This document shows positions 3,479 through 38,431 of a stretch of DNA of 38,431 nt, piece by piece. How positions within the stretch are numbered: the stretch's first letter is position 1; each line of letters begins with the position of its first letter. Made by a program: the position numbers and the translations under genes. This DNA comes from a virus: the IMG/VR virus record IMGVR_UViG_3300045988_147738, positions 1 through 38,431 of that record; one strand, given 5' to 3'. Below the pieces are notes generated by a model. That model was not told where the DNA came from, did not search any database, and worked only from the letters and a program-made list of their open reading frames with translations.

Positions 3479-3976
3479 TCACTTGGCGGTGAAATACGCC
3501 TTGCGCTTATCCTCGATACGGTCTGCCTGACCGTCCAGCACCATCTGACGCACCAGAGAAGAAACCTTCTGATTGGACGCATCGGCGATAGCGGGGACAG
3601 ACTTCATCAGAGCGGACACGGTGTACTTCTCGCCCTTGTGGGCGTCCAGAAACGCCTTGATGTCAGCCTTGATACCCTCGTTTGCCACCTGCATGGCGGT
3701 CGGCTTCTTGTCCACGGTGTTCTTGCGGTCGAGCAGTTCCAGCTCGTGGTTCAGGAAGCCCGCCACATCAGCACCGGAAACCTTGACAGTGGCATCACCC
3801 TTGGAAATGTCATAGGTGGCGTCCATATCCACCTTGGACAGAATGGCGGTGAAATAGTCGCGCTTGGTCAGACGAACAGAGGAAGTGGTGTTAGTCATAG
3901 TATCAACCCTTTCTGCGTTTTTAGGTGTCGCCCACCATATTGTTGTTTCCCTCTTGGAACATCTATATTCTAACAC
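3479..3976 (-). CDS. hypothetical protein (165 aa), paralog of 5973-6374
   Basis: Shares LLDRKNTVDKKPT and SNQKVSSLVRQMVLDGQADRIEDKRKAYF with the paralog. A GC hairpin at 3440-3472 separates it from the downstream gene, as in the other copy. Confidence 0.6.
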   Translation of the reverse strand: MLEYRCSKRETTIWWATPKNAERVDTMTNTTSSVRLTKRDYFTAILSKVDMDATYDISKGDATVKVSGADVAGFLNHELELLDRKNTVDKKPTAMQVANEGIKADIKAFLDAHKGEKYTVSALMKSVPAIADASNQKVSSLVRQMVLDGQADRIEDKRKAYFTAK

Positions 3977-4163
3977 ATATCCGAAGCCTTGTCAAGACTT
4001 TTTTTCGGATTTGTGGAATTTTTTTAAGGTACACGCCCCGCCGGGAGGTCTTACCCTCTCCCTTGGAACAATTATATATTACCACACCCTTGGGCAAATT
4101 ACAATAGTCAATACTCACAAAAAAATGGGATTTTCAACATCTAAAATTTGTGCAAAAAAACAC

Positions 4164-4259
4164 TTGACAAAATTTGTGCCACGTGGTATAATGGAAATTT
4201 CGGGCGCCACATCCGTGAGCGCCCGACTCATTTTAACACATTTGAGCGCATTTGTCAAT
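4164..4259. promoter_or_regulatory. promoter-hairpin module copy 3: convergent plus and minus consensus promoters flanking a GC hairpin
   Basis: Plus strand reads TTGACA(4164)-N17-TATAAT(4187). Hairpin GGGCGCC-acatccgtga-GCGCCCG at 4202-4225. Minus strand reads TTGACA(rc 4254-4259)-N17-TAAAAT. Confidence 0.7.
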
Positions 4260-4299
4260 AGGCAATTTGCACAAAAATAAACCAGCGTAGTTGGCTACT

Positions 4300-4625
4300 A
4301 CGCTGGTTCCCCTGTTGATACTCGCCAGCCGTCCGGACAGCCAGCCCACTTCTACACAGCAGACCTAATCAGACGGGCGCAATGCCCACATAGATGGTCT
4401 TTCTCGGCACGCGGTGAATGTGGTTAGAACTTCGTACCCAGTCCCAATTTCTAACGAGGGGTTCAAGATAGCGTTTGAGAAGAAACTGTCGAGGGGACAA
4501 ACACTCTGTTAAAATCCATCTTGGCCGGGGAATTAAATATAATCAATCATTAAACTATCTAATCAAACAATGATTGACTACTAAGGTGGTCGATACAATC
4601 GCCATTTCATTTTTCTCACCTCACA
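4300..4625 (-). ncRNA. candidate noncoding RNA or long leader: an ORF-free interval between a consensus minus-strand promoter and a terminator
   Basis: No ORF longer than 10 codons has a ribosome-binding site. A minus-strand promoter at 4631-4660 (reverse complement TTGACAaatcgccccgcctgtgcTATACT) and the minus terminator hairpin at 4283-4310 bracket it. The plus-strand promoter of module 3 also reads into this interval. Confidence 0.35.
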
Positions 4626-4668
4626 ATATTAGTATAGCACAGGCGGGGCGATTTGTCAAGAGTTTTTT

Positions 4669-5352
4669 TCAAAACTCTAACTCGTCCCGAACGCCATAGC
4701 CGGAGAAATCGAGGATAACAGGAGAAATGCCAATGTACCCAATGTTTGAGCCGTGGAGGTCGTTTATGTGATACTTCTTGACGAACTCACAGAGGGCGAT
4801 AACCTTGCGCTTACCGTGGAGGGAAACGGCGACTTTTGCCCACAATCCATCAAGGTTGCGCCCATAGCCATTTTGGTCTGCCTTGCGGAACTGCCGTTCA
4901 ATCTGATTAACTCGGCAATCAGGAACAGTCTTTGCGATACGGATAAGACGATTTTTCAGCCCATCCTCTTGCCAGCAGATTTTATGAGCACAGTTGGTGA
5001 TAATCTGTTGAGCGGTGAACGCAATCGCTTCGCCATCACGAGGAGAAACAATGTAGCCAGCCAACATAGTGGCGGGGAAAAAATCAGCGAGGTTTGCGTC
5101 TACGGCTTTCTGATACACAGCCACTTCGCGCTCTGCGTCCCGCGTCTCCATAGACCATTTGAGAACATAGCCCAGCTCAGGAAACACCAGACATTCCTTG
5201 GTCGCGCCGTTGCTGGTGACTATCTTGACATTAGGGTATTCGTTGTGGATAACGCGGCACAGACTGTCTGCCTGTCTGACCAGTCTCGGCTTTTCAGATA
5301 CCGCCTGCTGAATGGTCAGGATAAAATCCTGAACTCTCGGAAACTCCATCAT
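4669..5352 (-). CDS. putative protein-kinase-like (APH/ePK-fold) protein
   Basis: HINDLHGSNIGY...ILDFSG resembles a kinase catalytic loop (HxDLHxxN) followed by a DFG-like motif. GAAAGGAG ribosome-binding site. Weak assignment. Confidence 0.35.
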   Translation of the reverse strand: MMEFPRVQDFILTIQQAVSEKPRLVRQADSLCRVIHNEYPNVKIVTSNGATKECLVFPELGYVLKWSMETRDAEREVAVYQKAVDANLADFFPATMLAGYIVSPRDGEAIAFTAQQIITNCAHKICWQEDGLKNRLIRIAKTVPDCRVNQIERQFRKADQNGYGRNLDGLWAKVAVSLHGKRKVIALCEFVKKYHINDLHGSNIGYIGISPVILDFSGYGVRDELEF

Positions 5353-5429
5353 TCATCGCTCCTTTCAGTATCATCATTATAGCACATTACAGGAGAATTA
5401 CAATAGGCAAAATGCACAAAATTTTGCGG

Positions 5430-5523
5430 AAAAAATTTCTGAAATTGTATAATGTGCCGAAAACCGGGCGCCAGGACCGTAAGCGCCCGGCCAAATTATA
5501 CCACACGCGCTCGGATTTGTCAA
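5430..5523. promoter_or_regulatory. promoter-hairpin module copy 4
   Basis: Minus strand reads TTGACAaatccgagcgcgtgtggTATAAT, then hairpin GGGCGCC-aggaccgtaa-GCGCCCG. A plus-strand TATAAT lies at 5448. Confidence 0.65.
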
Positions 5524-5564
5524 TAGGCAAAATACACAAAAAAAATGAGGGAGATTTCTCTCCC

Positions 5565-5921
5565 TCACTTGCGCGGGCAACTAAGCACAACCTTATATTT
5601 TGTTCCATCAAGCGTGAATAAAAATTCGCGCTCCGCGTTGCTCACGTTCAGGTCAGTCGCGCCGTATGTGGTCAGTGTCTCGGTCAGCAAGGTGATAATG
5701 CCTTGCTTCGTAAGATTAGCCTTTCTTTCTCTTGGCGCGAACTTGTATGCGGTCGGCTGGCGTCCTACTCCACGCGCTTTCTTGCTTGCCTTTTCCTGTT
5801 CCTCGGTCAGCGGAAACGGATTGCCGCCCTTGTCGATGATAGCATCTTGAACAATAATGTCCTTTGCTTCGGCTTCGGTACAATCCAGCTTTCGCATGAG
5901 GTCGGCAACTCGGTCAGTCAT
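5565..5921 (-). CDS. hypothetical protein (118 aa), paralog of 3019-3417
   Basis: See the paralog. TGA stop. Confidence 0.6.
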   Translation of the reverse strand: MTDRVADLMRKLDCTEAEAKDIIVQDAIIDKGGNPFPLTEEQEKASKKARGVGRQPTAYKFAPRERKANLTKQGIITLLTETLTTYGATDLNVSNAEREFLFTLDGTKYKVVLSCPRK

Positions 5922-5972
5922 GCGGTACTCCTTTCAGGGTTAGGGTGGGGAGCAATCCCCACCCTTTGAGGT

Positions 5973-6374
5973 TTACGCGCTCACCTTGCGGAAGAACGCC
6001 TTGCGCTTGTCCTCCACGCGCTCCACCTGCTTATCCAGCACCATCTGCCGGACGAGGGAGGACAGCTTCTGATTGCTCATGTCCTTACAGACGGGGAACT
6101 CTTTGAGCATCTCGCTGATGGAATACAGCCGGTTGCTCTCCATAGCGGACAGGACAGAGGTCTTGATAACCTCATTCTCCTGCTGGGTCTTGGTGGGCTT
6201 CTTGTCCACGGTGTTCTTGCGGTCGAGCAGGTCGATTTCGTGGGTGATGAACTCCACCAGCTTGGGGTCAGCCTTGACCTCGGACAGCTTGAGCAGGGCG
6301 GTGAAATTGTCGCGCTTGGTGGGCTTACGGGTGGCGGTGTTAGTGTTAGCCATAGTATCAATTCCTTTCTCCAT
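5973..6374 (-). CDS. hypothetical protein (133 aa), paralog of 3479-3976
   Basis: See the paralog. Proximal promoter at 6399-6450 (reverse complement TTGACAatcccagcgcaagctgtTATAAT). A GC hairpin at 5936-5962 lies between the two genes of the cassette. Confidence 0.6.
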   Translation of the reverse strand: MEKGIDTMANTNTATRKPTKRDNFTALLKLSEVKADPKLVEFITHEIDLLDRKNTVDKKPTKTQQENEVIKTSVLSAMESNRLYSISEMLKEFPVCKDMSNQKLSSLVRQMVLDKQVERVEDKRKAFFRKVSA

Positions 6375-6454
6375 TTGGTTTTGAGGGCTTTACCCTCCTG
6401 ACATTATCTATTATAACAGCTTGCGCTGGGATTGTCAAGACTTTTTTTCAAAAT

Positions 6455-6900
6455 TCTTGATTTTTTTTAATAGTGTCAACAGGGGAACGTCCCACAAGTA
6501 TTCACAACGACTTACAACCTCGCCTGACGAATAAGGTGTTGCTTGTTGGTTCAACGTTTCCATGCGCATGGACGAACTGACCAATCCACTCACTTTTCGT
6601 TCATCGTTTGGGATTACTGCGCTGGTATAGGGCTTACTTCCTTTACTCTCTCACGGTTCGCGACCCGTGGATTTCTTGGGTGGGGCTGTTCCCCTCTTGA
6701 CATTATCAATTATAGCACAGGTGCTGGGGATTGTCAAGAGGGAATTTGCGGGTCAGTTACCGAGTTATCACACCCGCCAGCGTGGCTCTTGCGAGGCGAC
6801 TTGCTGTTCCCTCTTGACATTATGTAGTATAGCACAGGTGGGTATGGATTACAATAGGCAAACTATACAAGTTTCGGGAAAAATAAATAAAAAAATTTAT
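6455..6900 (-). ncRNA. ORF-free interval driven by two tandem minus-strand promoters; candidate noncoding RNA(s)
   Basis: Promoters at 6715-6745 (reverse complement TTGACAatccccagcacctgtgcTATAAT, embedded in the palindrome CCTCTTGACA-N28-TGTCAAGAGG) and 6810-6845. No ORF in 6470-6700 has a ribosome-binding site. The 16-mer GTTCCCCTGTTGAYAC is shared with the interval at 4307. Confidence 0.3.
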
Positions 6901-6912
6901 GTAAAAAAACTC

Positions 6913-7007
6913 TTGACAAAATTGCTGGCGGGGTGTATAATGGTGAATTCCGGCCGAGACGCGCGAAATCGGCCGGCCATTATACCACACCCAGGCACAT
7001 TTGTCAA
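6913..7007. promoter_or_regulatory. promoter-hairpin module copy 5
   Basis: Plus strand reads TTGACAaaattgctggcggggtgTATAAT. Hairpin GGCCG-agacgcgcgaaat-CGGCC. Minus strand reads TTGACAaatgtgcctgggtgtggTATAAT. Confidence 0.7.
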
Positions 7008-7022
7008 TAGGTAAAAATGCAC

Positions 7023-7056
7023 AAAAAATGAGGGGAAAATCCCCTCATTTTTTTAG
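7023..7056. terminator. bidirectional intrinsic terminator
   Basis: aaaaaATGAGGGGAaaaTCCCCTCATttttttt. Confidence 0.7.
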
Positions 7057-7586
7057 TCCATCTGACAAGCGAGAAATGTGTCCCGCTTTTCGTTCAGTTT
7101 GACGATTTCGCCCGCCAGCGCATCAGCCCTCATAGCCAACAGACGCCCATAGCCCTTGCGCCAGTTCAGCATACCATCGGGATTGACCGTGTAAATGAGC
7201 TTCTCCTTTTCCACGGTCTTGGTGTCCTTGCACTCCGTGCGGAAATCCTGTCCATTCATAGCCAGCAGAGCGTTCTGCGCCACTCCCGGCAAACGCATCC
7301 AGTCATACTCGGTCATCAGAGCGTTGCCATCCTTGTCAATCATCCAGATTTCCGCTTCCCACGGGTCAATCTTGATTTCCTTGGTGCTTTTCTCGGTGCG
7401 TACCACCTTGATGATACCCTCGTCCCGCAGGAACGACAGGGAATTGTAGGTGTACCGCCGGTAGTCGTGCTTTGCCTTGGAGAAGTCCTCGGAAGTGAAC
7501 TCCTTGTTTCCGAATAGGTCTACCAGCCACTTGTAGGTCTTGACCGTGCGGTTGAAATTGTGAACATTGGCATAGCGAGCTTTCAT
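7053..7586 (-). CDS. hypothetical protein (about 177 aa)
   Basis: Start taken at MKARYANVHNF with an AAAAGGAG ribosome-binding site. Upstream promoter reads TTGACAacgcccccattccatgcTATAAT, with its -35 inside the terminator loop at 7660-7690. Confidence 0.55.
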   Translation of the reverse strand: MKARYANVHNFNRTVKTYKWLVDLFGNKEFTSEDFSKAKHDYRRYTYNSLSFLRDEGIIKVVRTEKSTKEIKIDPWEAEIWMIDKDGNALMTEYDWMRLPGVAQNALLAMNGQDFRTECKDTKTVEKEKLIYTVNPDGMLNWRKGYGRLLAMRADALAGEIVKLNEKRDTFLACQMD

Positions 7587-7699
7587 AGTTTTTTCTCCTT
7601 TTCTGTTGGTGGGGCTTACCATCGTTTCCCCTACCTTGAATTTGTAATGTTATTATAGCATGGAATGGGGGCGTTGTCAACCCCCATTCCAAACTTTTT

Positions 7700-7912
7700 T
7701 TACGGGGTGTCGTGCTTGCGGTATTCAGTCAGGTCAGGGTCGCCAATCCATTCCGAAAAGTCAACCCAGTAGTCGAATTCATGGAGAATGGTAGTTTCCT
7801 CGCCCTCGAATACTCCACCACAGCAGGCACAAATGACATTTCCGTCATCAGTCTGAATACCCGCCTGAACGCCATCTGAATGGTCGCTCTTAAACAGAAC
7901 TTGCTTCGGCAT
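7700..7912 (-). CDS. small Cys-containing hypothetical protein (70 aa)
   Basis: AAGGAGG ribosome-binding site. Promoter at 7935-7975 (reverse complement TTGACAgtccctttctcatgtggTATAAT). Confidence 0.55.
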   Translation of the reverse strand: MPKQVLFKSDHSDGVQAGIQTDDGNVICACCGGVFEGEETTILHEFDYWVDFSEWIGDPDLTEYRKHDTP

Positions 7913-7979
7913 TTCGCTTACCTCCTTATTTCAGTATAGTCATTATACCACATGAGAAAGGGACTGTCAAGCCCCAATC

Positions 7980-8636
7980 TCAAAACTTGGGAAAACATTT
8001 TACCTCAAAGGGTGCGTCCCATGCGTGGACGTTCTTGGTGTATCGCTTGTGCATCTTCTGACAGGCAAGGAAAATTTCCATTTCCTGCATAGCGTCAGAC
8101 AGGGCGGTGTGTTCTTCCTCAAAGTCAGGATTGCCGTGGAGATAGCCATACACCGCTTCGACAGAGGTTGCACAGGTCTTGCCATTCTTGGAACGCTTGC
8201 CATGCTCTCGGCAATATTCCGCATAGGACTTCTTGTGGGTGATAGTTTCCAGTGCCATAAGATACAGGTCGATGAACTCGAAAGTGTCCAGCAGGTCGCG
8301 GAAACAGGTCTTGCAGAAGTCAAAACCGGAATTGTATGCCATCACATAGCGAACGCCGTAATGGTCGCACAGGTTTTTGATTACCTCATAGGCTTCGCGC
8401 TCCGTGGCGATAGCGGAGATTTCACCAGCTTTGAGCCGTTCGGCATACTTGGGAAAATTCTTCTTGGCATAGCCATCGGTGGCGATTTCGTCATAATGCT
8501 CCATCACCAGCAGGGAAGTGGTGGCAAGGATTTCGCCCTTGCGGTCGTGGATAATCGCGCCCACATTATACATTCCCGTGGGGTGAGCCGCACCGCCTAC
8601 CGTTTCAGTGTCCAGCGTGCAGTAGATATTTTTCAT
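7980..8636 (-). CDS. DEDDh-family (DnaQ-like) 3'-5' exonuclease
   Basis: Exo I motif CTLDTETVGG, Exo II motif YNSGFDF and Exo III motif HTALSDAMQEMEIF. AAAAGGAG ribosome-binding site. Confidence 0.65.
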   Translation of the reverse strand: MKNIYCTLDTETVGGAAHPTGMYNVGAIIHDRKGEILATTSLLVMEHYDEIATDGYAKKNFPKYAERLKAGEISAIATEREAYEVIKNLCDHYGVRYVMAYNSGFDFCKTCFRDLLDTFEFIDLYLMALETITHKKSYAEYCREHGKRSKNGKTCATSVEAVYGYLHGNPDFEEEHTALSDAMQEMEIFLACQKMHKRYTKNVHAWDAPFEVKCFPKF

Positions 8637-8748
8637 TGTTCATTCTCCTTTTCTCTTGGTTGGGCTTACCATCGTGTCCCATACCTTAATTACATTACAT
8701 ATTATAGCAAATAGGGGCGAGATTGTCAACCCCTATTTGCTATTTTTT

Positions 8749-9194
8749 TTACAGGTTGCGCAGAATTTCCATAAGCAGGTCGGCATTGTATGCCATATTA
8801 TGGGTGTTTGCCGTCCACTCGTTGAGGTTGCGCTGTTCATCATCGAATAGAATAGACGCGGGGCAGGTGGCGCAGGTGGACTTGGGGACGCCATAGGGGA
8901 CAATATGGATTTCGTCCCACTGAACGCTGGGGAGATGCTTTGCCAGCCATTCTCGCTTGACCTCGGCTACTTCGGCATTGAACTTATCCGTTCCGCTCTT
9001 GGACAGCCAACTGATGATGCCGATATTGTAGCCACGCGCCTGTAAGCGGTTCAGATAGCGGGCGAGGGTGGAGAAGTGGACAAGCGGGCGGGCGTCCGCA
9101 TATACGCTCGTGTCCGCGGCTTCCAGCTTTGCCAGCCAGTTAGGGTCGCCATACAGGTCGGTGATAGTCCCGTCCATGTCCAGATAGATAGTCA
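8749..9194 (-). CDS. HAD-superfamily hydrolase-like protein (possibly a nucleotidase)
   Basis: N-terminal IYLDMDGTITDL matches HAD motif I (DxDGT). Start taken at MTIYLDMDGT with an AAAGGAAG ribosome-binding site. Proximal promoter at 9225-9262 (reverse complement TTGACAaatcgcgttttatcctgTATAAT). Confidence 0.5.
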
Positions 9195-9344
9195 TAGTAT
9201 CAACTTCCTTTCTTGATTGTAATGCTATTATACAGGATAAAACGCGATTTGTCAACAGTTTTTTCAATTCTGCTCTTGGTCATTTCGCACAAATTTTCGG
9301 GATGCGCGCTTGGGCAAATTTGTTCAATTTACCTATTGACAAAA

Positions 9345-9430
9345 TTGCTGGCAGGGTGTATAATGGAAATTTCGAGCGCCAGGGCCGTGGGCGCTCGGCC
9401 GAGTATACCACAAATAGGGGCGTTTGTCAA
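9345..9430. promoter_or_regulatory. promoter-hairpin module copy 6
   Basis: Plus strand reads TTGACAaaattgctggcagggtgTATAAT. Hairpin GCGCC-agggccgtgg-GCGC. Minus strand reads TTGACA-N17-TATACT. Confidence 0.7.
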
Positions 9431-9442
9431 TAGGTAAAATGA

Positions 9443-9475
9443 ACAAAAAAAATCTCCCAAATTTGGGAGATTTTT
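9443..9475. terminator. bidirectional terminator
   Basis: aaaaaaaaTCTCCCAaatttGGGAGAttttt. Confidence 0.7.
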
Positions 9476-9481
9476 CATTTA

Positions 9482-9696
9482 TTAACTCTTGACAGTGACG
9501 CGGAAGATGGAGCGCAGGATTGCGACAATGAGCCAAACCACCAGCACCAGTTTCCACGAGAACGCGATAACGAAAGAGCCGATGGACACGATGCCAATGG
9601 CGGGGAGAAGCCAGCAGAGAAGCCAGACCAGTCCAGCAGAGAACAGGAAGTCGATGCCAAGGCATACCAGTACCAAAAACAGAGCAGTAAACATTT
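9482..9696 (-). CDS. small membrane protein (about 71 aa, 2 predicted transmembrane helices)
   Basis: Hydrophobic MFTALFLVLVCLGIDFLFSAGLVWLLCWLL... AAGGAGGA ribosome-binding site before the internal ATG. Confidence 0.5.
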
Positions 9697-9707
9697 GTTG
9701 TTCCTCC

Positions 9708-9857
9708 TTAATAAATTTGTTCGCCGTTGTGGTAGCGTTCGTATCTCGCTTCAAGGAAGTCGAAAATGAACTCGAAGTCGTCCGCGTCCGCGGGGTCTAC
9801 GAACGTCTTTTCAAGGATTTCGCCAGTGTGGTCATTGAAAACTTTAATCATTTCCAT
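9708..9857 (-). CDS. small acidic hypothetical protein (about 49 aa)
   Basis: AGGGAGGA ribosome-binding site before MEMIKVFNDHTGEIL. Confidence 0.45.
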   Translation of the reverse strand: MEMIKVFNDHTGEILEKTFVDPADADDFEFIFDFLEARYERYHNGEQIY

Positions 9858-9923
9858 TTTGTTGTCCTCCCTTATTTGATGATACCATTCTAACACAGAG
9901 GGGCTGATTTGTCAACCCCTATT

Positions 9924-10394
9924 TTACAAATTTTTGCTTTCTGCCACGAAATATTTTGCGCCATATTGCGCCACAATGTCTTTGACCTTTTTGCTCTCGG
10001 CTTGCGTGGCACAATAGAAATTGAATAGCGTGTGTTTATTGCTAATCTCAATGTATGAATGGGGAATGTCTCGCAGGTCAAAATCCACAGCGGCACGATA
10101 CTTTGTGGGGACAGTCATTTCAATCTTCCACAATTTTTCCTTGCGCGCCAGCTCTTCCACCCACTTAACCGCCAGTACACCGATGAAATTACAGGCGGCG
10201 GTGATGCTCATTTTTGCCAGTGTAGAAACGCCGTCAATGTTGGTTAGGATAATGACATAGGAATAGAAGCCATAGGTCAGCGCATTGATACCGGCGGCTA
10301 CCCACTTATTGCCTTTGACAGTCAGAATGGATTTGATGGTGGACAGCACCACATTGATAGCGGTACAGACAATGAATAGGATAATTGCGTTCAT
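9924..10394 (-). CDS. membrane protein: N-terminal 3 transmembrane helices plus a C-terminal soluble domain (about 157 aa)
   Basis: Start at MNAIILFIV with an AAAGGAG ribosome-binding site. Promoter TTGACA-N17-TATTAT at 10415-10455 on the minus strand. Confidence 0.5.
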   Translation of the reverse strand: MNAIILFIVCTAINVVLSTIKSILTVKGNKWVAAGINALTYGFYSYVIILTNIDGVSTLAKMSITAACNFIGVLAVKWVEELARKEKLWKIEMTVPTKYRAAVDFDLRDIPHSYIEISNKHTLFNFYCATQAESKKVKDIVAQYGAKYFVAESKNL

Positions 10395-10536
10395 AATCAT
10401 CACTCCTTTTTCAGTATAATAATAATAACACATTTAATTGAAAATGTCAAGAAAAATTTTTGTCGTAGTTAAATTCTCACAAGATTAGATTTTTGTTCCG
10501 TGTAGTTAGTCAGGACTAAACCCAACAAGAGGGGCG

Positions 10537-19196: not shown

Positions 19197-20393
19197 ATGA
19201 CTGTAGATAATGATAAAAAAGTATATTATTGCGAACGATGTAATAGAACTATGGGCGCTGACCAGTTTTATACATCTAATAATTTAGAAAAATATCCAAA
19301 TGATGGAAAACTCTCTCAATGTAAAAAATGTATTACAATGCTTGTAGATAATTGGAATCCAGAAACTTATATGTGGATTCTACAAGAAATTGATGTACCT
19401 TATGTTCCAGATGAGTGGAGTAAATTAATGGTAAAATATGGACAAGATAAATCTAAATTAACTGGTATGAGTATTTTAGGTAGATATTTGTCCAAAATGA
19501 AACTTAAACAATATAGAGATTATCGATGGAAAGATTCTGAGTTTTTATAGGAAGTGGCTAATAATAAATTAGAACAAACTATGAAACGCCAAGGCTATGA
19601 TGCTCAGCAAATAGCAACAGCTATTGCTAAATCTACTGTCGCTATTCCAGAAGAAGAATTAAAACCTTACACTCCTGAATTACCAGAACGTTTTAGAGAT
19701 GGTGATGATTATTTTGATCAATAGAATGGTATTGAACATGACCCAGCAGATGACCTCGATTTAACAGAAGAAGATATTTTATATCTTCGTATGAAGTGGG
19801 GTAAAGCATATAAACCTGAAGAATGGGTTAAACTAGAGCAACTCTATGAAGAAATGATGAGTTCTTACGATATCCGCGGCGCTGGTCATATTGATACATT
19901 AAAATTAATTTGTAAGACATCCTTAAAAGCAAACTAGTTGATCGATATTGGTGATATCGAAGGTTTCCAAAAGATGAGCAAGGTTTATGATAGTCTAATG
20001 AAATCAGGTAATTTCACCGCCGCTCAAAACAAAGCAGATACAGGAGAAGCATTTGATTCTATTGGAGAATTAGTGGCCATGTGTGAAACTGAAGGATTTA
20101 TTCCTCGGTATTATACAGAAGGTCCAAAAGATAAAGTTGATGAAACTTTACAAGATTTAAAGAATTATACACACACATTAGTCACTGAAGAGATGAATCT
20201 AGGTAATCTCATTGAAGGGGCTATTAAGAAAATGCAAGAAGAAGAAAATAAAGAAGAAGACCAAGATATTGAAGAAGATTTAACGATGGAAGAAATCGAT
20301 CATCTTAAAGATGAAGATTTAATTGAATATAATGATTTCCTTGAAGAAGAGTCTGAAATAGACGCTCAGACTTTAAGGAATTTAGAAGGATAA
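19197..20393 (+). CDS. hypothetical protein (about 398 aa, N-terminal CxxC pair, acidic C-terminus), possible small terminase or DNA-binding partner; 3 in-frame TAG
   Basis: Track ORFs 19197-19550 and 19938-20393 share a frame. The in-between sequence has no TAA or TGA. Confidence 0.45.
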
Positions 20394-20394
20394 T

Positions 20395-22128
20395 ATGGCT
20401 TTATAGGATTTACTTGATTTATCTTAGAAGCGTAAAAAGATTGGAATTTCAGAGGACCGTCTTCGTGCGATTATACCAGAAGCAAGATAGTACATAGCCT
20501 TTTGGAGAGAATACCCAGATATGTTTATCGACTTCATGGCAGGACCTGATGGCGGCCCTCAACATTTTAAACTCTATTTTTATTAGAGAATCTTTTTGCG
20601 CGCTGCGATGCGTCATAAATATATTTATGCTGTATTCCCTCGTGCTTATTCAAAATCTTTTTTATCAATGATAGTCTTAATGTGTCGTGCGATTCTATAT
20701 CCTAGATGTAAATTATTTATTACTTCTGGTGGTAAAGAACAAGCGGCTGGAATTGTAAAAGAAAAAGTTCAAGAAATTTGTACTCTTATTCCTGCATTTT
20801 AGAAAGAAATAGATTGGCGTCGTGGTTAGACACTTGAAGGTAAGGATTATGTTAAATATGTATTTAAAAATGGTTCATATTTTGATAATATTGCTGCAAG
20901 AGAATCTTCTCGTGGTAAACGTCGCCATGGTGGTTTAATTGAAGAGTGTGTTGGCGTTGATGGGGATATTTTATCACAAGTTATTATTCCTACAATGAAT
21001 ATTTCTCGTATGTGTATGGATGGTACTACTCAACCTGATGAAACTCTTAATAAATCTCAAATTTATATTACTACTGCTGGATATAAAAATACTTTCCCCT
21101 ATGATAAATTAATCCAATTATTAGTTTGGGAGATTGTTAAACCTTAGCAATCTATTATTATGGGTGGTACTTATCGTATTCCTGTTTTAATGAAATTGTT
21201 AGATGCGAATTTTATTAAAGACTTAAAAATGGACGGAACGTTCAATGAAAGTTCATTTGACCGAGAGTATGAAAGTAAATGGTCTGGCACAGTAGAAGAT
21301 GCATTTTTTAATGCTGAAATATTTGATAGAAATAGAATATTAAATTAGCCTGAATATGAAGCATCCGGGCGTAATTCAAAATTAGCATCTTATGTACTTG
21401 CTGTCGACGTTGGCCGTAAAGGATGCGATTCAGTTATTTGTGTATTTAAAGTAACTCCACAATCACAAGGTGGTTCAATTAAAAGTTTAGTAAATATATA
21501 TACATTATCTGATGAACATTTTGAAGACCAAACTATTAAATTAAAAAAATTATATTATAAATATAATGCTGATAGAATTGTAATTGATGGCAATGGTTTA
21601 GGAATTGGTTTAATTGATTATATGGTTAAAACATAGATTGACCCTGAAACCAATGAAATTTTCCCTGATTTTGGTGTTGTTAATGATGATGATTTATTTT
21701 ATAAAAAATATAAAACATCTAATACAGTATTAGATGCTATGTATATTATAAAAGCTAATGCGCCACTTAATACTGAAGCTCATGCGATTGCTAAATCACA
21801 ACTTGCTTCTGGAAAAGTGAAATTTTTAATTGATGAGCGTGTAGCAAAAAATAAACTTCTTGCTAAAAAGAAAGGTCAAACCATGACTCCAGAATAGAGG
21901 GCAGAAGAATTAAAACCATTTACATTAACTTCCATATTAAAAGAAGAAATGATGAATTTGCGTGAAGAAACTGAAGGAGTAAATATTATCCTGAAGCAAG
22001 CAAATAAAAGTATCCGAAAAGATAAATTTTCTGCTTTTGAATATGGATTATATTATTTAAAATTAGAAGAAGATAAAAAGAAGAAACGTAAAAAGTTTAA
22101 TGCTAAAGATTGGTGTTTCTTGAATTGA
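20395..22128 (+). CDS. terL: terminase large subunit (about 577 aa) with about 10 in-frame TAG
   Basis: ATG at 20395 with a GAAGGA ribosome-binding site. Walker A-like FPRAYSKS and a LIEEC Walker B-like acidic patch. RNaseH-like nuclease region YVLAVDVGRKGCDSVICVF...IVIDGNGLG. Track ORFs 20596-20802 and 21160-21348 fall in the same frame. TGA stop. Confidence 0.7.
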
Positions 22129-22495: not shown

Positions 22496-22507
22496 GGAGG
22501 TGGAATT

Positions 22508-24169
22508 TTGGATACTAAAGAATTATCACGTTAGGAAATCATCCACTCCAAAGGATTTAATATCAGCAATGGAACAAGTGATTATCGAACTGCTGATCCA
22601 ACAGAATATCGTAAGATAAAAGTCGGGGTTCAAACATTAGATGATGCTGTATTAGATTTAGGGTCATTTGCTCGACTATATCCTAATCGTCGTGGTCCAT
22701 GCCGCATGGTCACTAAAAATGATGTATTACGAGCTATGATAAATCGTGATATTGTTGAAATGCGTAGAATTTCTAATTTATTTTATGATATTAGCGGCAT
22801 TTATGAGCGAGTATGTAATTATTTTGCTTATTTGTATAGATATGATTGGTATGTCGCTCCAGAGATTTTAGATGATACGGTAAAAGATGAAAAAGTTTTA
22901 AAAGATTTTTCAAAGTTATTAAATTATTTAGATAATACTTATATTAAAAAAATCTGCGGTGATATTGCTCAAAGTATTATGAAAAATGGTTGTTATTATG
23001 GATATATAGTACAATCTGCAAATAGTTTAATGTTACAAGAATTGCCTGCTAGTTATTGTCGTTCTAGATATTTTGTGGCTGGTATGCCAGCGATTGAGTT
23101 TGATATGCGGTTTTTTGATTAGTTTCCAGACCCTAATTATCGTATGCGCGTATTAAAATTATTTCCTGAAGAATTTTAGCGTGGATATGTTTTATATAAG
23201 AAAGGAAAATTACTTCCTGATATTAAGGGAGATTATAGTGGAAGTTGGTATTTACTATCTCCAGAATTAAGTGTGAAATTTAATTTTAATGGTAGCGATA
23301 CTCCACCATTTATTAATTCTATTCCTGCTCTTATGGATTTAGATGCTGCTCAAGATTTAGACCGCAGAAAACAAATGTAGAAGTTGTTAAAAATTATTGT
23401 TCAAAAACTTCCTATGGATAAAAATGGTGATTTAATATTTGATATTGATGAATCTCGTGATATACATAATAATGCTGTTGCTATGTTATCAAGAGCCATT
23501 GGCGTTGATGTTTTAACAACATTTACTGATGTTCAATCTATTGATTTATCAGATAAAAATACTACAACTACTACAGATGATTTAGCAAAAGTTGAACGTA
23601 CTGTTTATAATAATTTAGGTATTTCTCAAAATCTATTCAATACTGATGGTAATTTATCATTAGAGAAGTCTATTCTTAATGATGAATCAACTGTTAGAAA
23701 CTTGTTGTTGCAATTTAACATTTTTTTTGATAGAATAGTAAAGATGAAAGTTGCGAACAATAAGAAATATAGTTTTAAATTTTATATGCTTGAAACTACA
23801 CAATATAATTATAAAGAAATGTCAAAATTATATAAAGAACAAACGCAACTTGGTTATTCTAAGATGCTACCTCAAATTGCTCTTGGTCACTCTTAGAGTT
23901 TTATTTTAAATACTGCGGTGTTTGAAAATGATGTGTTGAAATTAACTGAAATTATGATCCCACCATTAATGTCTTCTACTATGAGTAGTCAAGATGTTTT
24001 GGGTAATAAAGGTTCAAACAATTAGAATAAAACACAAAATAATCCAGGAAGTAGTAATCAATAGACTACTACAAAACAGACTACTGAAACAAAATAGTCT
24101 GGGCGACCTGAAAAGGCTGATGATTAGAAAAGTGAAAAAACCATAAAAAATAAAGAGTCAATGAATTAA
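22508..24169 (+). CDS. putative portal protein (about 553 aa) with about 9 in-frame TAG
   Basis: Size and position directly after terL. Track ORFs 22706-23122 and 23384-23896 share a frame. TTG start with an AAGGAGG ribosome-binding site. Only TAG interrupts the frame. Confidence 0.5.
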
Positions 24170-34853: not shown

Positions 34854-34882
34854 TTATATTATGAGAGAAAGGAGTCCCGTTT

Positions 34883-37800
34883 ATGGCAAAACAATTAAAT
34901 GTTGCATTAGATTTTACTGCGAATACTACTCAAGCGAAATAGCAGATTTAGGAATTGCAGTAGTTATTAACTAAAGTAGCATATAGTACTGATTTAGGTA
35001 TTGATCCCAGTCAAATGAAAGCAGCTTCTGCTGCGGCTAAAGAGCTAGCTATTCATTTAAATGAAGCATATAATTAGAAAACTGGTAATTATGATTTAAG
35101 TAAATTAAATGCTAGTTTAGCTAAATCAAAAACTAATGTGACTGAATTATCTACCAGTTTACTTCAAGCGGGAACAACTGGACAACAAGCATTTATAAAA
35201 TTAGCTCAATCAATAGCGGCGGCTGATTAGCCAATGATTACATTAAATGCTCGTTTACAAGATTTTTTAACTACTGTTAAAAATACAGTTAAATGGCAAA
35301 TTTCTTCAAGTATGATTCATGGTGTAATGGGGGCTTTGCAAGGAGCTTATCATTACGCTTAGAATTTAAATAGTTCATTAAATGATATCCGAATTGTTAC
35401 TGGTCATAATATTGACTATATGGATAAATTTGCTGATAGAGCAAATAAAGCAGCAAAGGCATTAAGCACTTCTACATTAAATTATACTGATGCTTCTTTG
35501 ATTTACTATCAACAGGGTTTATCAGATAAAGAAGTAGAAGATAGAACTGCGGTCACAATTAAAATGGCTAATGCTGCTGGCGAAAGCGCAGATAAGATAT
35601 CAGATCAATTAACTGCTGTCTGGAATAACTTCTATGATGGATCATAGTCATTAGAATATTATGCTGATGTTATGACTGCATTAGGTGCAGCTACTGCATC
35701 AAGCACAGATGAAATTGCGGCTGGATTAGAAAAATTCGCGGCTGTGTCTAATACAGTAGGTTTAAGTTATGAGTACGCTACTTCTGCTTTAGCAACTGTT
35801 ACTGCAACAACTCGTCAATCTGCTGATGTAGTTGGTACTGCATTTAAAACATTATTTGCTCGTATTCAAGATTTAGAGTTAGGTAAAACTCTTGATGATG
35901 GTACTACATTAGGCAAATATTCTCAAGCTCTTGAAACTGTTGGTGTTTCTATTAAAACAGCAGACGGCGAGTTGCGAGAGATGGATGATATTCTTGATGA
36001 TTTAGGTGAAAAATGGAATTCATTTGACGCTGAAGGGAATCCATTAATTTCTAAAGATGCTAAAGTGGCATTAGCTCAAACTGTTGCTGGTGTTCGTCAA
36101 TATACACAATTAATGGCATTAATGGATAAATGGGATTTTATGAAAGAAAATCTCGAAACTGCTCGTAATGCTACTGGAACATTAACTGAACAATAGAAAA
36201 TTTATGAAGAATCTTGGGAAGCCGCTAATAAGCGTTTACAAGCTTCATTCCAAGCTTTATACACCGATTTAATTGATGATAAATTTTTTATTAAATTTAC
36301 AGATTTTTTATCTGATATGGTTGATGGTGTTGATTCTTTTATTGATAAAATTGGTGGAATTAAACCTTTATTATTAGGATTTTTATCATTAATTGGTTAG
36401 ACATTAAGCTCTAAAATTTAGCCGGCTTTAGATAATGTAATAAATAATATTCAAATTTTAGTAGGTGGAGCAGATAAAGTTTATGCTAAAATATCTAAAG
36501 AAACTTCTGATAATATCAAACTATAGTTAGAAGCAAGAACTAATTTTACTCCAGCTCAAGAGTAGGAATTAAAAAATTCTTAGGAATTATTAGGAGTAAA
36601 AAATAAATTAGCAACAGTGTCTGAAAATTTATCTGTTAGTGAAAAAAGATATTATGAAAATGAAATTCAATTTATTGAAAAACAATAGTAGGAAACAGTA
36701 AAATTAATTAAATTACGAGAACAATTAAATAAAGATACTAATCCTATTGATTTAAATGCTCCTAATCAAATTTATGATTATGGTACTAGTTATTTACAAA
36801 AATTAAAAGCTAATAAAGATAAAGCTTAGTAGTCATATCGTAATAATCCATCTGAAAGTAATTAGGCAGATTTAGTTGCTGCTAGAAATGATTTAGTTTT
36901 TTTCTAGAATGATAAATTAGATGTTCAGGAATAGGCAGCGTCTCAATTAGCACAAACAGTTGAAAAATTAACAAATGCTTATAAAACTTTTATTGAAGTT
37001 GGGCATGAAACAAATGAAACTTTATTATCAGGAAATGATTTATACTCTTTAACAATTGAAGGACTTAAAAAATTAGGGACTCAGTATACTAAATTAAATG
37101 GTGAAATTGATTTTGAAACGGTTCGAACTTCTATTGATATGCTTATTGGTCCAGTAGATGAAGTAACAAAATCTTCAAAAGATTTTCAAAATGCTTTAGA
37201 AGCTATTGAAAGTGCATTAGATGGAGGAAAGCCAAAAGAAGTAAGTTAGGCTTTTAAATAGTTGGCAGAAGTTCTAAAAAATACTACTGTTGAAGGAAAA
37301 AATGCGGCTAATGCTTTAGAACAAATGGGTCGTTCAACAAGTAAATCAATGAAATAGGCTAAAGGTGATATTTAGGCGCATGGTAAAGCATTAAAATAGT
37401 GGGGATAGGCTACTAAAGAAGCAAAAGAGGCACAAGAAGGACTCAATCAAGCAGTTATTAATTTTAAACCAGTTCATAAAATACCTTTTACTTAGAGTTT
37501 AATATCATTGGCTTCTGCTTGTGGTTCTGCCGCGATGACATTGCAATCATTTAATTCTATGATGCAAACATTATCTGATCCTGATATTTCTGAATGGGAA
37601 AAATTTACATCTGTTTTATTTAGTATTTCTATGATTGTTCCTGGGGTGTCTAGTGTTTTACGAGGATTAGGTACTGCTAATGCCTTTTTACAACAATAGT
37701 CTTAGAAACAATTTCTTACACTTTCTTTAGAAAATGTAGCGATAGAGGCTAATACAATAATATTAACTCAGAATCAAAAAAAGAAAATAGATAATATATT

Positions 37801-38431
37801 AGCTAGTAAAAAATTAAATGATGCTTTTAAAAAGAATGCTATACAAGCAGTTTTAGCTGCAGGAGGAGTGGTTACTGAAACTACAGCGTTGCAAGCTGAA
37901 GCTATTGTAGCAGGAAAGGCGACGGTAACAACCAATGCTTTTTCTACAGCTTTAAAAGGTTTATGGTTAAATATTGCTCCAGTTTTAGCCACTATTTGGC
38001 CTTTAATTATAGCTTTAGGAGCTTTGGTAGCGGCTTGGGCGATATATAATAATGCTACTGGGGCAGCAGCTGAAAACGCGGAATAGAATAATAAAAATTT
38101 AGAAGAAACTAAAACTGCTTTAGATGATGTAAATAGTAGATTAAATACATTAAATAGTACTTTATCTGGTTTAAATGATAAACGTAAAAATATTGACAAT
38201 CTTACTTATGGAACTGTAGAATGGCGAGATGCTGTTAATGAGTTAAATGATGAAGTTGATGATTTAATTGAAAAATATGGTTTAATAAAAGGATAGGATT
38301 GGGATATTGATGCTCAAGGGCGTAAGTATATTACAGATACTGGCGCGGAGACTATGCGTACTTCAATGGATGAAGAACGTTCTAATTTATTATCAGCAAA
38401 AGCTGCTCAATAGAAATTTAAAGATAAATAT
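34883..38431 (+). CDS. tail tape-measure protein, partial (at least 1183 aa, runs off the window end), with about 33 in-frame TAG
   Basis: Track ORFs 35420, 35672, 37508 and 37868 are all in one frame (position mod 3 = 2). TP901-type tape-measure-like region ALGAATASSTDEIAAGLEKFAAVSNTVGLSYEYATSALA. Hydrophobic segment LAPVLATIWPLIIALGALVAAWAIY. No TAA or TGA across 3.5 kb. GAAAGGAG ribosome-binding site. Confidence 0.7.

Follow-up and report, generated by a model that had tools for sequence, protein, structure and literature searches.

Homodimeric RNAs are rare in nature, and few phage noncoding RNAs (ncRNAs) have a known function. The phi29 pRNA (~120–170 nt) is transcribed from an early host-type promoter, has its ends joined in a helix and oligomerises by loop–loop pairs, while dimerisation via a palindromic apical loop is typified by the HIV-1 DIS. 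In the early regions of T7 and of the Bacillus subtilis phage SP82, host-type promoters stand in series along with RNA processing sites, and lytic phages commonly encode proteins that shut off their early promoters. Palindromic kissing loops are treated in the reviews PMC7357161 and PMC12291111. Here we consider the interval 6455–6900 of the viral contig IMGVR_UViG_3300045988_147738 (IMG/VR); the whole analysed stretch of 38,431 nt is referred to below as the window. The subject is a conserved 227-nt RNA encoded on the minus strand, together with an 86-nt RNA upstream of it and an inverted repeat around the promoter of the 227-nt RNA, in which a first-pass annotation had seen a repressor operator.

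We are highly confident that the interval encodes structured RNA cassettes whose arms give rise to the palindrome as a by-product. The reading as a whole, in which small-RNA cassettes, each with its promoter, form a short tandem array on the minus strand rather than an operator-controlled leader, complete with dimerisation of the main RNA and its action in trans, is the one that we favour on balance. The RNA family and the cassette architecture are apparently undescribed.

Each cassette transcript is predicted to begin with GUCA(A/G)GAGG, and tens to hundreds of nucleotides downstream of this start a complementary stretch, CCUCUUGAC, is found, which in most relatives doubles as the –35 box of the following promoter. 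In the 86-nt RNA, called alpha (Table 1), the first arm starts at 6818, and the complementary arm, ending at 6733, follows 74 nt later. The minimum free energy (MFE) of this RNA is –36.2 kcal/mol (z = –4.3), and that of the 227-nt RNA, –72.6 kcal/mol (z = –3.1), both folds being closed by the terminal arms. All 12 closing pairs of the 86-nt cassette are kept in six relatives, with one double change from A-U to G-C and two wobble changes.

Upstream of the conserved RNA, one to three additional units are found in close relatives, all of the same layout: promoter, GUCARGAGG, 74–152 nt that are internally structured but unrelated in sequence, and CCUCUUGAC. These units fall into at least six types. 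The order of the array is alpha and main RNA in the window, alpha, beta and main RNA in L196, whose main RNA is identical, and three other units followed by the main RNA in L001. The boundaries of gained or lost units coincide exactly with the repeated promoter/arm sequences, which is what unequal recombination would produce. We also observe that the number and type of accessory cassettes vary, over 400–600 nt upstream, among otherwise near-identical phages (L196, L001–L006, L175, L179, L215, L177), the 93-nt beta cassette of L196 being missing from the window.

The 227-nt RNA is the only copy of its family in the window. The covariance model of the core (R1) scores 79.5 bits at this locus (E ~1e-15), the next-best match in the window having 16.5 bits. 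Homologs were found starting from the downstream protein and then with DNA patterns built from conserved stretches, yielding 83 fetched loci with 45 distinct full-length sequences of 87–241 nt. They come from roughly 41 IMG/VR viral contigs (our own tally), mostly of 80–200 kb, as well as from human-gut metagenome contigs and one contig of a metagenome-assembled genome (MAG) from yak colon. The latter, L205 (JAGBXW010000037.1, 12.8 kb, assigned to a “Treponema sp.” MAG), is the only match in the genome collection; it holds a full family member flanked on both sides by phage-type promoters, and is probably a phage fragment binned into the Treponema MAG, in which case the family reaches beyond the human gut. 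A looser pattern, GARAGTARAGGAAGTA, yielded mostly chance matches in coding regions, and R1 retained only L051 and L059 among the loci searched from that batch.

Every family member starts with GUCA(A/G)GAGG approximately 7 nt past the –10 box of a consensus-type promoter, and this distance to the first G is the same in the window and in every class of relatives. A 67-nt core is common to all members and comprises the 5′ arm, CC(C)AAGAAAUC, a hairpin (P2), and GA.AGUA.AGGAAG.A. It is followed by nothing, a short linker, or an insert module of ~100 nt, and then by the 3′ arm CCUCUUGAC. The core is near-invariant, compared to 40–53% identity between classes for the neighboring 126-aa protein. 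The purine-rich strand of the core, AGA(A/G)AG-UA-(A/G)AGGAAG, resembles a Shine–Dalgarno (SD) sequence; we take this as a property of purine-rich sequence and not as evidence. Complements of the two invariant strands, considered as possible trans-targets, are not enriched in the window (11 observed vs. 14 expected, and 7 vs. 4.3).

The known families yielded no relatives of this RNA. Rfam 15 (4227 models) gives no match in the whole window at gathering thresholds, none overlapping 6455–6900 when 3800–7200 is scanned with E up to 10, and, at E up to 1, none over the RNA at six further loci of the family. ARAGORN predicts no tRNA or tmRNA, and blastn of the 227-nt RNA with promoter P2 finds no match in 50,697 deposited phage genomes. 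A wider blastn query did match phage phAss-1, solely via a neighboring element with face-to-face promoters, and this candidate was discarded. Likewise, R1 yields one strong match in the window, and the interval 4280–4630 (described below) does not belong to the family.

The RNA is closed by helix P1, formed by the terminal arms. The GUCARGAGG/CCUCUUGAC pairing is kept in 45 out of 45 distinct members, including L240 and L258, which have no promoter-like site over the 3′ arm. Pairs 1–9 persist throughout the 19 distinct arm combinations with only wobble-type changes (position 5 is G·U in six combinations, and position 2, U·G in four), the exception being one G·G mismatch at pair 6 in eight combinations of classes A/B, the window included. 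Beyond pair 9 we observe complementary extensions specific for each class: GGGGAAC/GUUCCCC in the class of the window, GGGGAAGG/CCUUUUCC in L051, and GGAAAG/CUUUCC in L240. The length of the helix is 9–15 bp, possibly with stacking on a further 6-bp helix in the MFE fold of the window RNA; RNase III processing hairpins of phage early RNA are stems of roughly 20 bp, at times interrupted. In the window the 3′ arm holds TTGACA, followed by 17 nt and a poor –10 box, GAATTT; we read this as a decayed promoter.

Covariation is observed in hairpin P2. In the alignment of 33 distinct core sequences 99.6% of its cells are paired, and four of the seven pairs show double changes, the stem variants including CACGG/CCGUG, CGAGG/CUUCG, CAAGG/CCUUG, and AAGAG/CUCUU. 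Its loop is self-complementary: UCGCGA in the window, UGCGCA, CGCGCG, CGGCCG, UGGCCA elsewhere, and UGUGCA, whose symmetry involves G·U. In the same sequences 99% of the loop cells are self-complementary, and all three symmetric pairs have compensatory changes. The palindrome is flanked by 5′ G and 3′ A in nearly all members, with the exceptions of L023 (5′ A), L240 (no 3′ A), and L208, whose loop is degenerate. The whole structure is 99.4% paired, vs. 36–47% with the partner slid by 1–3 columns, and its covariation score was reached by none of 500 shuffles.

As a 6-nt loop palindrome cannot pair within one molecule, pairing between two copies of the RNA is the natural reading. The 6-bp loop duplexes are predicted to have –7.9 to –10.7 kcal/mol (–7.9 for the window loop), and an extended-duplex dimer of the hairpin is predicted to be 12–16 kcal/mol better than two monomers (12.5 in the window). 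We rate the chances that this loop mediates kissing or extended-duplex homodimers as slightly better than even. The structure is strand-specific: about 20 G·U cells in hairpin P2 and the G·U/U·G pairs in helix P1 would be A·C mismatches on the opposite strand. Folding energy could not be used for the choice of the strand, as both strands fold well, and promoters and the G·U pattern were used instead.

The insert module is less uniform. The small hairpin that it forms in the window has counterparts in GCGGA-UACG-UCCGC, UCGGA-UUUA-UCCGA, and CCGG-N9-CCGG, and a long-range helix possibly joins two GUAAG-like motifs flanking the module. RNAalifold applied to 7, 11, and 23 sequences produced only partly consistent long-range helices and no full consensus of the module. 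Palindromic loops are seen in this hairpin as well, namely GCGC in the window, GGCC in L051 and L216, and AGCU in L205 and L206; the loops of classes D and E are U-rich or UACG, so no general claim is made. Pairing of AAAUCC with GGAUU was dropped, as GGAUU is absent from classes B, D, and E.

Table 1. Coordinates of RNA, promoter, and gene features of the interval 6455–6900 and its surroundings in the window.
Feature	Position	Strand	Remarks
Promoter P4	6979..7007	–	TTGACA-17-TATAAT, 12/12; part of the face-to-face promoter element
Promoter P3	6826..6854	–	TTGTAA-17-TATACT, 9/12, TG before –10; ahead of the 86-nt cassette
Cassette RNA “alpha”	6733..6818	–	86 nt; 12-bp closing stem GUCAAGAGGGAA / UUCCCUCUUGAC; 3′ arm holds the –35 box of promoter P2
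Palindrome	6692..6742	.	Left half 6692–6702 encodes the 5′ arm of the 227-nt RNA; right half 6732–6742 encodes the 3′ arm of the 86-nt RNA
Promoter P2	6709..6737	–	TTGACA-17-TATAAT, 12/12, with TG; ahead of the 227-nt RNA
Conserved structured ncRNA	6475..6701	–	227 nt; identified by covariance model and homologs
Helix P1, 5′ arm	6688..6701	–	GUCAAGAGGGGAAC; starts ~7 nt after –10
Conserved strand	6669..6680	–	CCCAAGAAAUCC; its core CCAAGAAAUC is invariant in 23 distinct cores of the first alignment
Hairpin P2	6649..6671	–	7-bp stem, 1-nt bulge (6651), 8-nt loop G-UCGCGA-A
Self-complementary loop	6658..6663	–	UCGCGA, 6 nt; putative kissing-loop dimerisation site
Purine-rich strand	6633..6651	–	AGAGAGUAAAGGAAGUAAG, nearly invariant; family consensus GA.AGUA.AGGAAG.A
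Insert-module hairpin	6550..6561	–	CCAU-GCGC-AUGG
Helix P1, 3′ arm	6475..6488	–	GUUCCCCUGUUGAC; 13/14 pairs with the 5′ arm; ~213 nt downstream of it
Promoter P1	6410..6438	–	12/12; belongs to the downstream gene; preceded by A-tracts at 6441–6474
P1 mRNA 5′ end	6383..6402	–	GUCAGGAGGG, local fold GAGGG-UAAAG-CCCUC (by eye); weak R1 match, 16.5 bits
Downstream gene	5973..6353	–	126 aa, unknown function; not linked to the RNA in other phage classes

The 227-nt RNA has a promoter of its own, promoter P2, with 12 out of 12 consensus positions, which is conserved in the relatives L001–L006. The two tandem minus-strand promoters of the first-pass annotation are real, but they are an undercount, since a fourth minus-strand promoter (P4) is found just upstream; its transcripts would enter the cassette array. 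Promoters P1, P2, and P3 have a common sequence after the –10 box, ATAATGTCA(A/G)GAGGG (repeat family D8). The mRNA transcribed from promoter P1 starts with the same motif as the cassettes, but here it is a part of a 5′-terminal hairpin. In general, the early region is rich in such sites: a consensus scan of 3500–10500 gives 33 promoter-like sites vs. 9.1 ± 3.0 in shuffled sequences (~3.6-fold), 11 of them being perfect (12/12).

As had been annotated, a noncoding transcript of ~230–250 nt would precede the own promoter of the next gene (P1). The interval is also ORF-free (ORF, open reading frame) in substance, although not literally, as there are mechanical ORFs of 52 aa on the minus strand and of 94 and 115 aa on the plus strand; we consider it noncoding since indels of 1 nt and 14 nt and insertions of whole cassettes fall across these ORFs in relatives. 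The genes after the conserved RNA differ between phages: the 126-aa gene in the window, a gene starting with MMTEKNK in class C, and a homolog of the 218-aa ORF (7980–8636 in the window) in L051, L206, L208, and L210. Past the RNA comes a new consensus promoter or, in the case of L240 and L258, a hairpin and a terminator-like stem with a U-run; this 9-bp stem, ~95 nt past the RNA, was read by eye and is not listed by the terminator scanner, its loop presumably exceeding the 8-nt limit. Since it stands ahead of three unrelated genes, with a new promoter or a terminator-like stem after it, the RNA is more probably a self-contained RNA gene than a leader of a single gene. The layout of a riboswitch or another cis-regulatory leader is not observed: the 12/12 promoter at 6438..6410 intervenes between the RNA and the gene, and no terminator/antiterminator or SD-sequestering hairpin is seen.

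The inverted repeat itself consists of CCCTCTTGACA at 6692–6702 and TGTCAAGAGGG at 6732–6742, that is, of 11-bp arms with 29 nt between them. The 10-bp palindrome of the first-pass annotation corresponds to 6693–6702 / 6732–6741; it is real, but the coordinates given for it, 6696–6745, are ~3 nt off, and its spacer, read directly from the sequence, is N29 and not N28. It does bracket the –10 box of promoter P2, whose –35 hexamer sits within the right arm. The near-duplicate left half is found as well: gttCCCTCTTGACATTAT begins at 6806, and the identity between 6809–6840 and 6692–6723 is 91% (repeat family D8), the duplicate being located immediately downstream of the weaker promoter P3. A lone 11-bp inverted repeat within ~50 nt is not rare in 38 kb (~0.5 expected by a rough estimate); its significance follows from recurrence of the motif and its conservation in relatives, and not from the single occurrence. 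GTCAAGAGG with at most one mismatch is found 26 times in the window vs. 4.5 ± 2.2 expected (~6-fold), and three of its four exact copies fall in this interval.

The layout suggested an operator, bound by a dimeric repressor (e.g., an AbrB-like protein or a cassette product) that would shut off the tandem early promoters. Shutoff of this kind is common in lytic phages, the perfect 11-bp repeat overlaps both the –35 box and the start site of a consensus promoter, and it is also present in L001–L006, L160, L177, and L215. Inside the cassette array, an operator and an RNA helix predict the same DNA, and therefore it is the array ends that separate the two readings. Where a cassette lies upstream (the window, L001–L006, L160, L177, L215), the match to the inverted +1 sequence is 10–11 out of 11; where the promoter of the RNA is the first in line (L018, L205, L210, L051, L206), it is only 4–8 out of 11 (both sets compared by eye), so that at the equivalent promoter without an upstream cassette the palindrome is weak or absent. 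It is absent also from the promoter following the RNA, which bears the CCTCTTGACA half with no inverted copy downstream, and in the class of the window the 3′ arm falls on a decayed promoter, yet its pairing is better and longer. Moreover, the half-sites coincide exactly with the arms of the RNA helices, which pair over 80–230 nt in 45 out of 45 members, and the substitutions in the arms, both in helix P1 and in the 86-nt cassette, are of the G·U/U·G type, keeping the RNA helix on the minus-strand transcript and breaking the DNA palindrome. Formation of RNA helices would account for all array-end cases, and an operator would not; hence, the repressor-operator interpretation finds no support in homologous loci, where the palindrome is not linked to the promoter, and we regard an operator as improbable. 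Since one and the same stretch serves as the 3′ arm of a cassette and as the –35 region of the promoter after it, the DNA around promoter P2 looks palindromic.

Several observations weigh against the cassette-array reading that we favor, or against parts of it. The first nine pairs of helix P1 hardly covary and are backed by conservation, not covariation. The alignment was fitted to the model and leans toward the modeled structure, and the sequences are closely related, so that the cell counts overstate the number of independent events; by our own tally the loop has undergone at least five double changes. In L208, a degenerate member, the loop is shorter and not palindromic (GCACAA), and the kissing dimers are predicted from sequence. 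The opposite strand folds equally well (z = –4.3). Finally, the scan found no intrinsic terminator between 6475 and promoter P1 in the window, and hence a discrete 227-nt species would need processing or a roadblock, being otherwise the 5′ part of a longer mRNA.

The last point speaks for the alternative in which the array is a cis-acting leader or processing module, the closing stems being RNase III-type processing or 5′-stabiliser signals for read-through early mRNAs, and the RNAs having no function of their own; the T7 R-sites and SP82 sites are precedents. The near-invariant 9-bp stem of helix P1 would suit recognition by a processing enzyme, the P1 mRNA begins with the same GUCAGGAGGG motif in a 5′-terminal hairpin, and gain and loss of cassettes between close relatives would fit as well. 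At the same time, past the RNA every downstream gene has a consensus promoter of its own, so a leader is not needed; the genes preceded by the RNA are unrelated, and a terminator-like hairpin comes after it in L240 and L258; and the constraint on the 67-nt core, which includes invariant single strands and a palindromic loop, goes far beyond the needs of processing. We consider such a module possible, though rather unlikely. Another option is that the RNA modifies RNA polymerase in cis, allowing for read-through of early-region terminators, similar to HK022 put or lambda nut/boxB. In favor of this, the RNA starts where a strong early promoter would initiate transcription, same-strand terminator-like hairpins are found downstream (5570..5543 and 4309..4279), and a highly conserved core is expected for contacts with conserved host machinery. 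On the contrary, read-through is not obviously needed, as almost every early gene has its own consensus promoter, the self-complementary loop has no role in put/nut action, the RNA unit in L240 and L258 itself ends at a terminator-like hairpin, and no similarity to any curated Rfam family was found; this makes a polymerase-modifying RNA quite improbable.

Selection at the level of DNA, i.e., for a replication origin, a recombination hot spot, or cruciform-forming palindromes with promoters serving for transcriptional activation, would agree with the A/T-rich tracts at 6441–6474 that follow the tandem promoters, with gain and loss of whole cassettes at the repeated promoter/arm sequences, and with the equally good fold of the opposite strand. 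It conflicts with the strand-specific features (the G·U pairs and the constant G…A flanks of the loop), with the always fixed distance to the promoter –10 box, and with the central 6-nt palindrome, which cannot pair within one strand, and so has very little probability in our estimate. Least of all do we believe in a protein encoded on the plus strand, antisense to the RNA. In most members no stop interrupts the antisense frame along the whole element, and the 94- and 115-aa mechanical ORFs of the window lie on that strand; still, the purine-rich sense strand accounts for the lack of antisense stops, the antisense frame of the window itself is interrupted, neither a plus-strand promoter nor a ribosome-binding site is seen, and 1-nt indels in A-runs, 14-nt and module-size indels, and compensatory changes in stems are incompatible with coding, so that this possibility is practically negligible.

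Returning to the array of RNA cassettes, its operation might be as follows. Host RNA polymerase would fire the tandem promoters early in infection, the host-type (sigma-70/sigma-A) promoters P3 and P2 each starting a transcript with GUCAAGAGG. Once CCUCUUGAC is transcribed, the two ends would pair, yielding a closed 86-nt RNA (6818..6733) and a closed 227-nt RNA (6701..6475), these ends being deduced from the promoters and arms. Helix P1 would shield both RNA ends from exonucleases, the conserved RNA would then dimerise via the loop of hairpin P2, and its two invariant single strands would contact a conserved partner. Whether the 227-nt RNA acts in trans as an abundant early RNA for host takeover or anti-defence seems to us an even call. 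Only tentatively do we go further and suggest that small RNA cassettes, each with its promoter, are shuffled within an array in which this RNA is the invariant member, the array being an RNA-based island for host takeover or anti-defence in TAG-recoded gut phages, with a loop-mediated homodimer binding or decoying a conserved host factor via the invariant strands; if true, this would be a new functional class of self-assembling phage RNA.

Independently of the function, the family occurs widely among uncultivated phages of the human gut with a reassigned TAG stop codon, and its compact RNA, with a core of ~67 nt, gives a clean covariation signal for a self-complementary loop, while a conserved partner is to be expected from the invariant single strands. 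Judging by the variability of the cassette arrays, phages may carry small RNAs in modular form. A palindrome in promoter DNA can be a by-product of RNA architecture, which calls for caution when annotating phage “operators.”

The window is assigned to a TAG-recoded gut phage because its plus-strand late region is open only with TAG as a sense codon. Under the standard code the structural ORFs of the plus strand (~14000–38431) are fragmented, with PHROG matches to the portal and tape-measure proteins on short fragments, and reading TAG as sense yields long contiguous ORFs at 34865–38431 (1189 codons), 20377–22128 (583), and 22496–24169 (557). The early minus-strand region holding the RNA uses the standard code. 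TAG reassignment is described for the phAss-1 group (PMC10607447); the words “promoter” and “non-coding” are both missing from the text of that paper, which deals with related TAG-recoding gut phages. The proteins neighboring the RNA have nothing informative in Pfam or PHROGs, and hence provide no candidate partner or repressor. The gene downstream of promoter P1 is duplicated, together with its 5′ region, ~2.5 kb away (3500–3976 vs. 6000–6374, 76–95% identity in patches; D6, D9, D16–D18, D20); this is the duplicated cassette of the first-pass annotation, and both proteins lack informative Pfam or PHROG matches.

One more candidate ncRNA, of ~345 nt, is probably encoded at 4280–4630 on the minus strand, annotated earlier as the first ORF-free interval: it has its own promoter (4659..4631) and terminator (4309..4279), 89–97% identity in related contigs, no conserved ORF, and no Rfam match. 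Just before this terminator, AGUAUCAACAGGGGAAC matches the complement of the 227-nt RNA 3′ arm (6472–6488; I17) with a single mismatch over 17 positions (16/17), and its AUCAACAGGGGAAC part is invariant in relatives; the chance of such a match in 7 kb is ~0.07 by a rough estimate. The complementarity could indicate a trans RNA–RNA contact competing with helix P1, or a relic of a cassette arm.

Promoter P4 belongs to a repeated 137-nt element found at 4144–4280, 6893–7029, and 9316–9452, with a weaker copy near 5412–5545 (D2, D15, I2). It consists of two face-to-face consensus promoters with –10 boxes ~33 nt apart and a GC-rich hairpin between them, whose stem covaries among the copies (CGGGCGCC/GGCGCCCG vs. 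CGAGCGCC/GGCGCTCG). This element is the only part of 5900–7700 with blastn similarity to phAss-1. Its plus-strand promoter at 6913–6941 would yield an RNA of ~105 nt ending at the bidirectional terminator 7023–7053, antisense to the minus-strand promoter.

Two other features of the early promoters were observed. Many have a second –10-like hexamer right after the –10 box (TATAAT-T-GATAAT, TATAAT-GAC-TATACT), e.g., at 6702–6714, 7929–7947, 10409–10427, and others, and the same doubling is seen in promoters of the 227-nt RNA family in other phages; the second hexamer might serve as an alternative –10 box or else cause sigma-dependent promoter-proximal pausing. At 7652–7700, 8701–8749, and 9887–9935, perfect hairpins of 10–14 bp hold the –35 box of a minus-strand promoter in the loop (e.g., GCAAATAGGGG-TTGACAATCTCG-CCCCTATTTGC; D4, I24), each followed by a T-run on the plus strand. 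They look like promoter-overlapping terminators against antisense transcription.

Compared with described systems, the locus shares single features with several of them. As in lambda OR/OL and LexA-type boxes, the inverted repeat in the window covers the –35 box and start site of a strong promoter, but its symmetry is not conserved as a promoter feature and obeys RNA pairing, including G·U. The early regions of T7 (A1-A2-A3 with RNase III sites) and SP82 (early RNA sites) likewise have serial consensus host-type promoters with conserved hairpins between the units, whereas the intervening sequences of the array considered here are conserved, covarying structured RNAs, one of which is common to phages with differing neighbor genes.

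Similar to ROOL, GOLLD, and OLE, bacterial or phage-associated RNAs whose function is unknown and which form homo-oligomers (PMC12286853), the 227-nt RNA may form homo-oligomers; those RNAs are larger and have curated Rfam models without a match to it, and the phage family shows one putative dimerisation loop only. The phi29 pRNA (RF00044) is also a phage RNA with a strong early host-type promoter, paired 5′ and 3′ ends, and loop–loop oligomerisation. It differs in having two different complementary loops that make rings, compared to one palindrome in the 227-nt RNA, for which Rfam gives no match, and the carriers of the latter are TAG-recoded phages, with contigs mostly of 80–200 kb, not small phi29-like podoviruses.

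The loop of hairpin P2 differs from the HIV-1 DIS in its length, 8 nt (G-N6-A) vs. 9 nt (AA/G-N6-A), and in belonging to a phage small RNA of 90–240 nt with a predicted dimer, and not to a viral genome in a packaging context. With the HIV-1 DIS (SL1), the coronavirus s2m, and the HCV 3′X DLS it shares an apical loop with a GC-rich 6-nt palindrome and unpaired flanking purines. As in DIS-like loops, the palindromes are lineage-specific, and the extended duplex of the phage RNA is predicted to be more stable than two hairpins.

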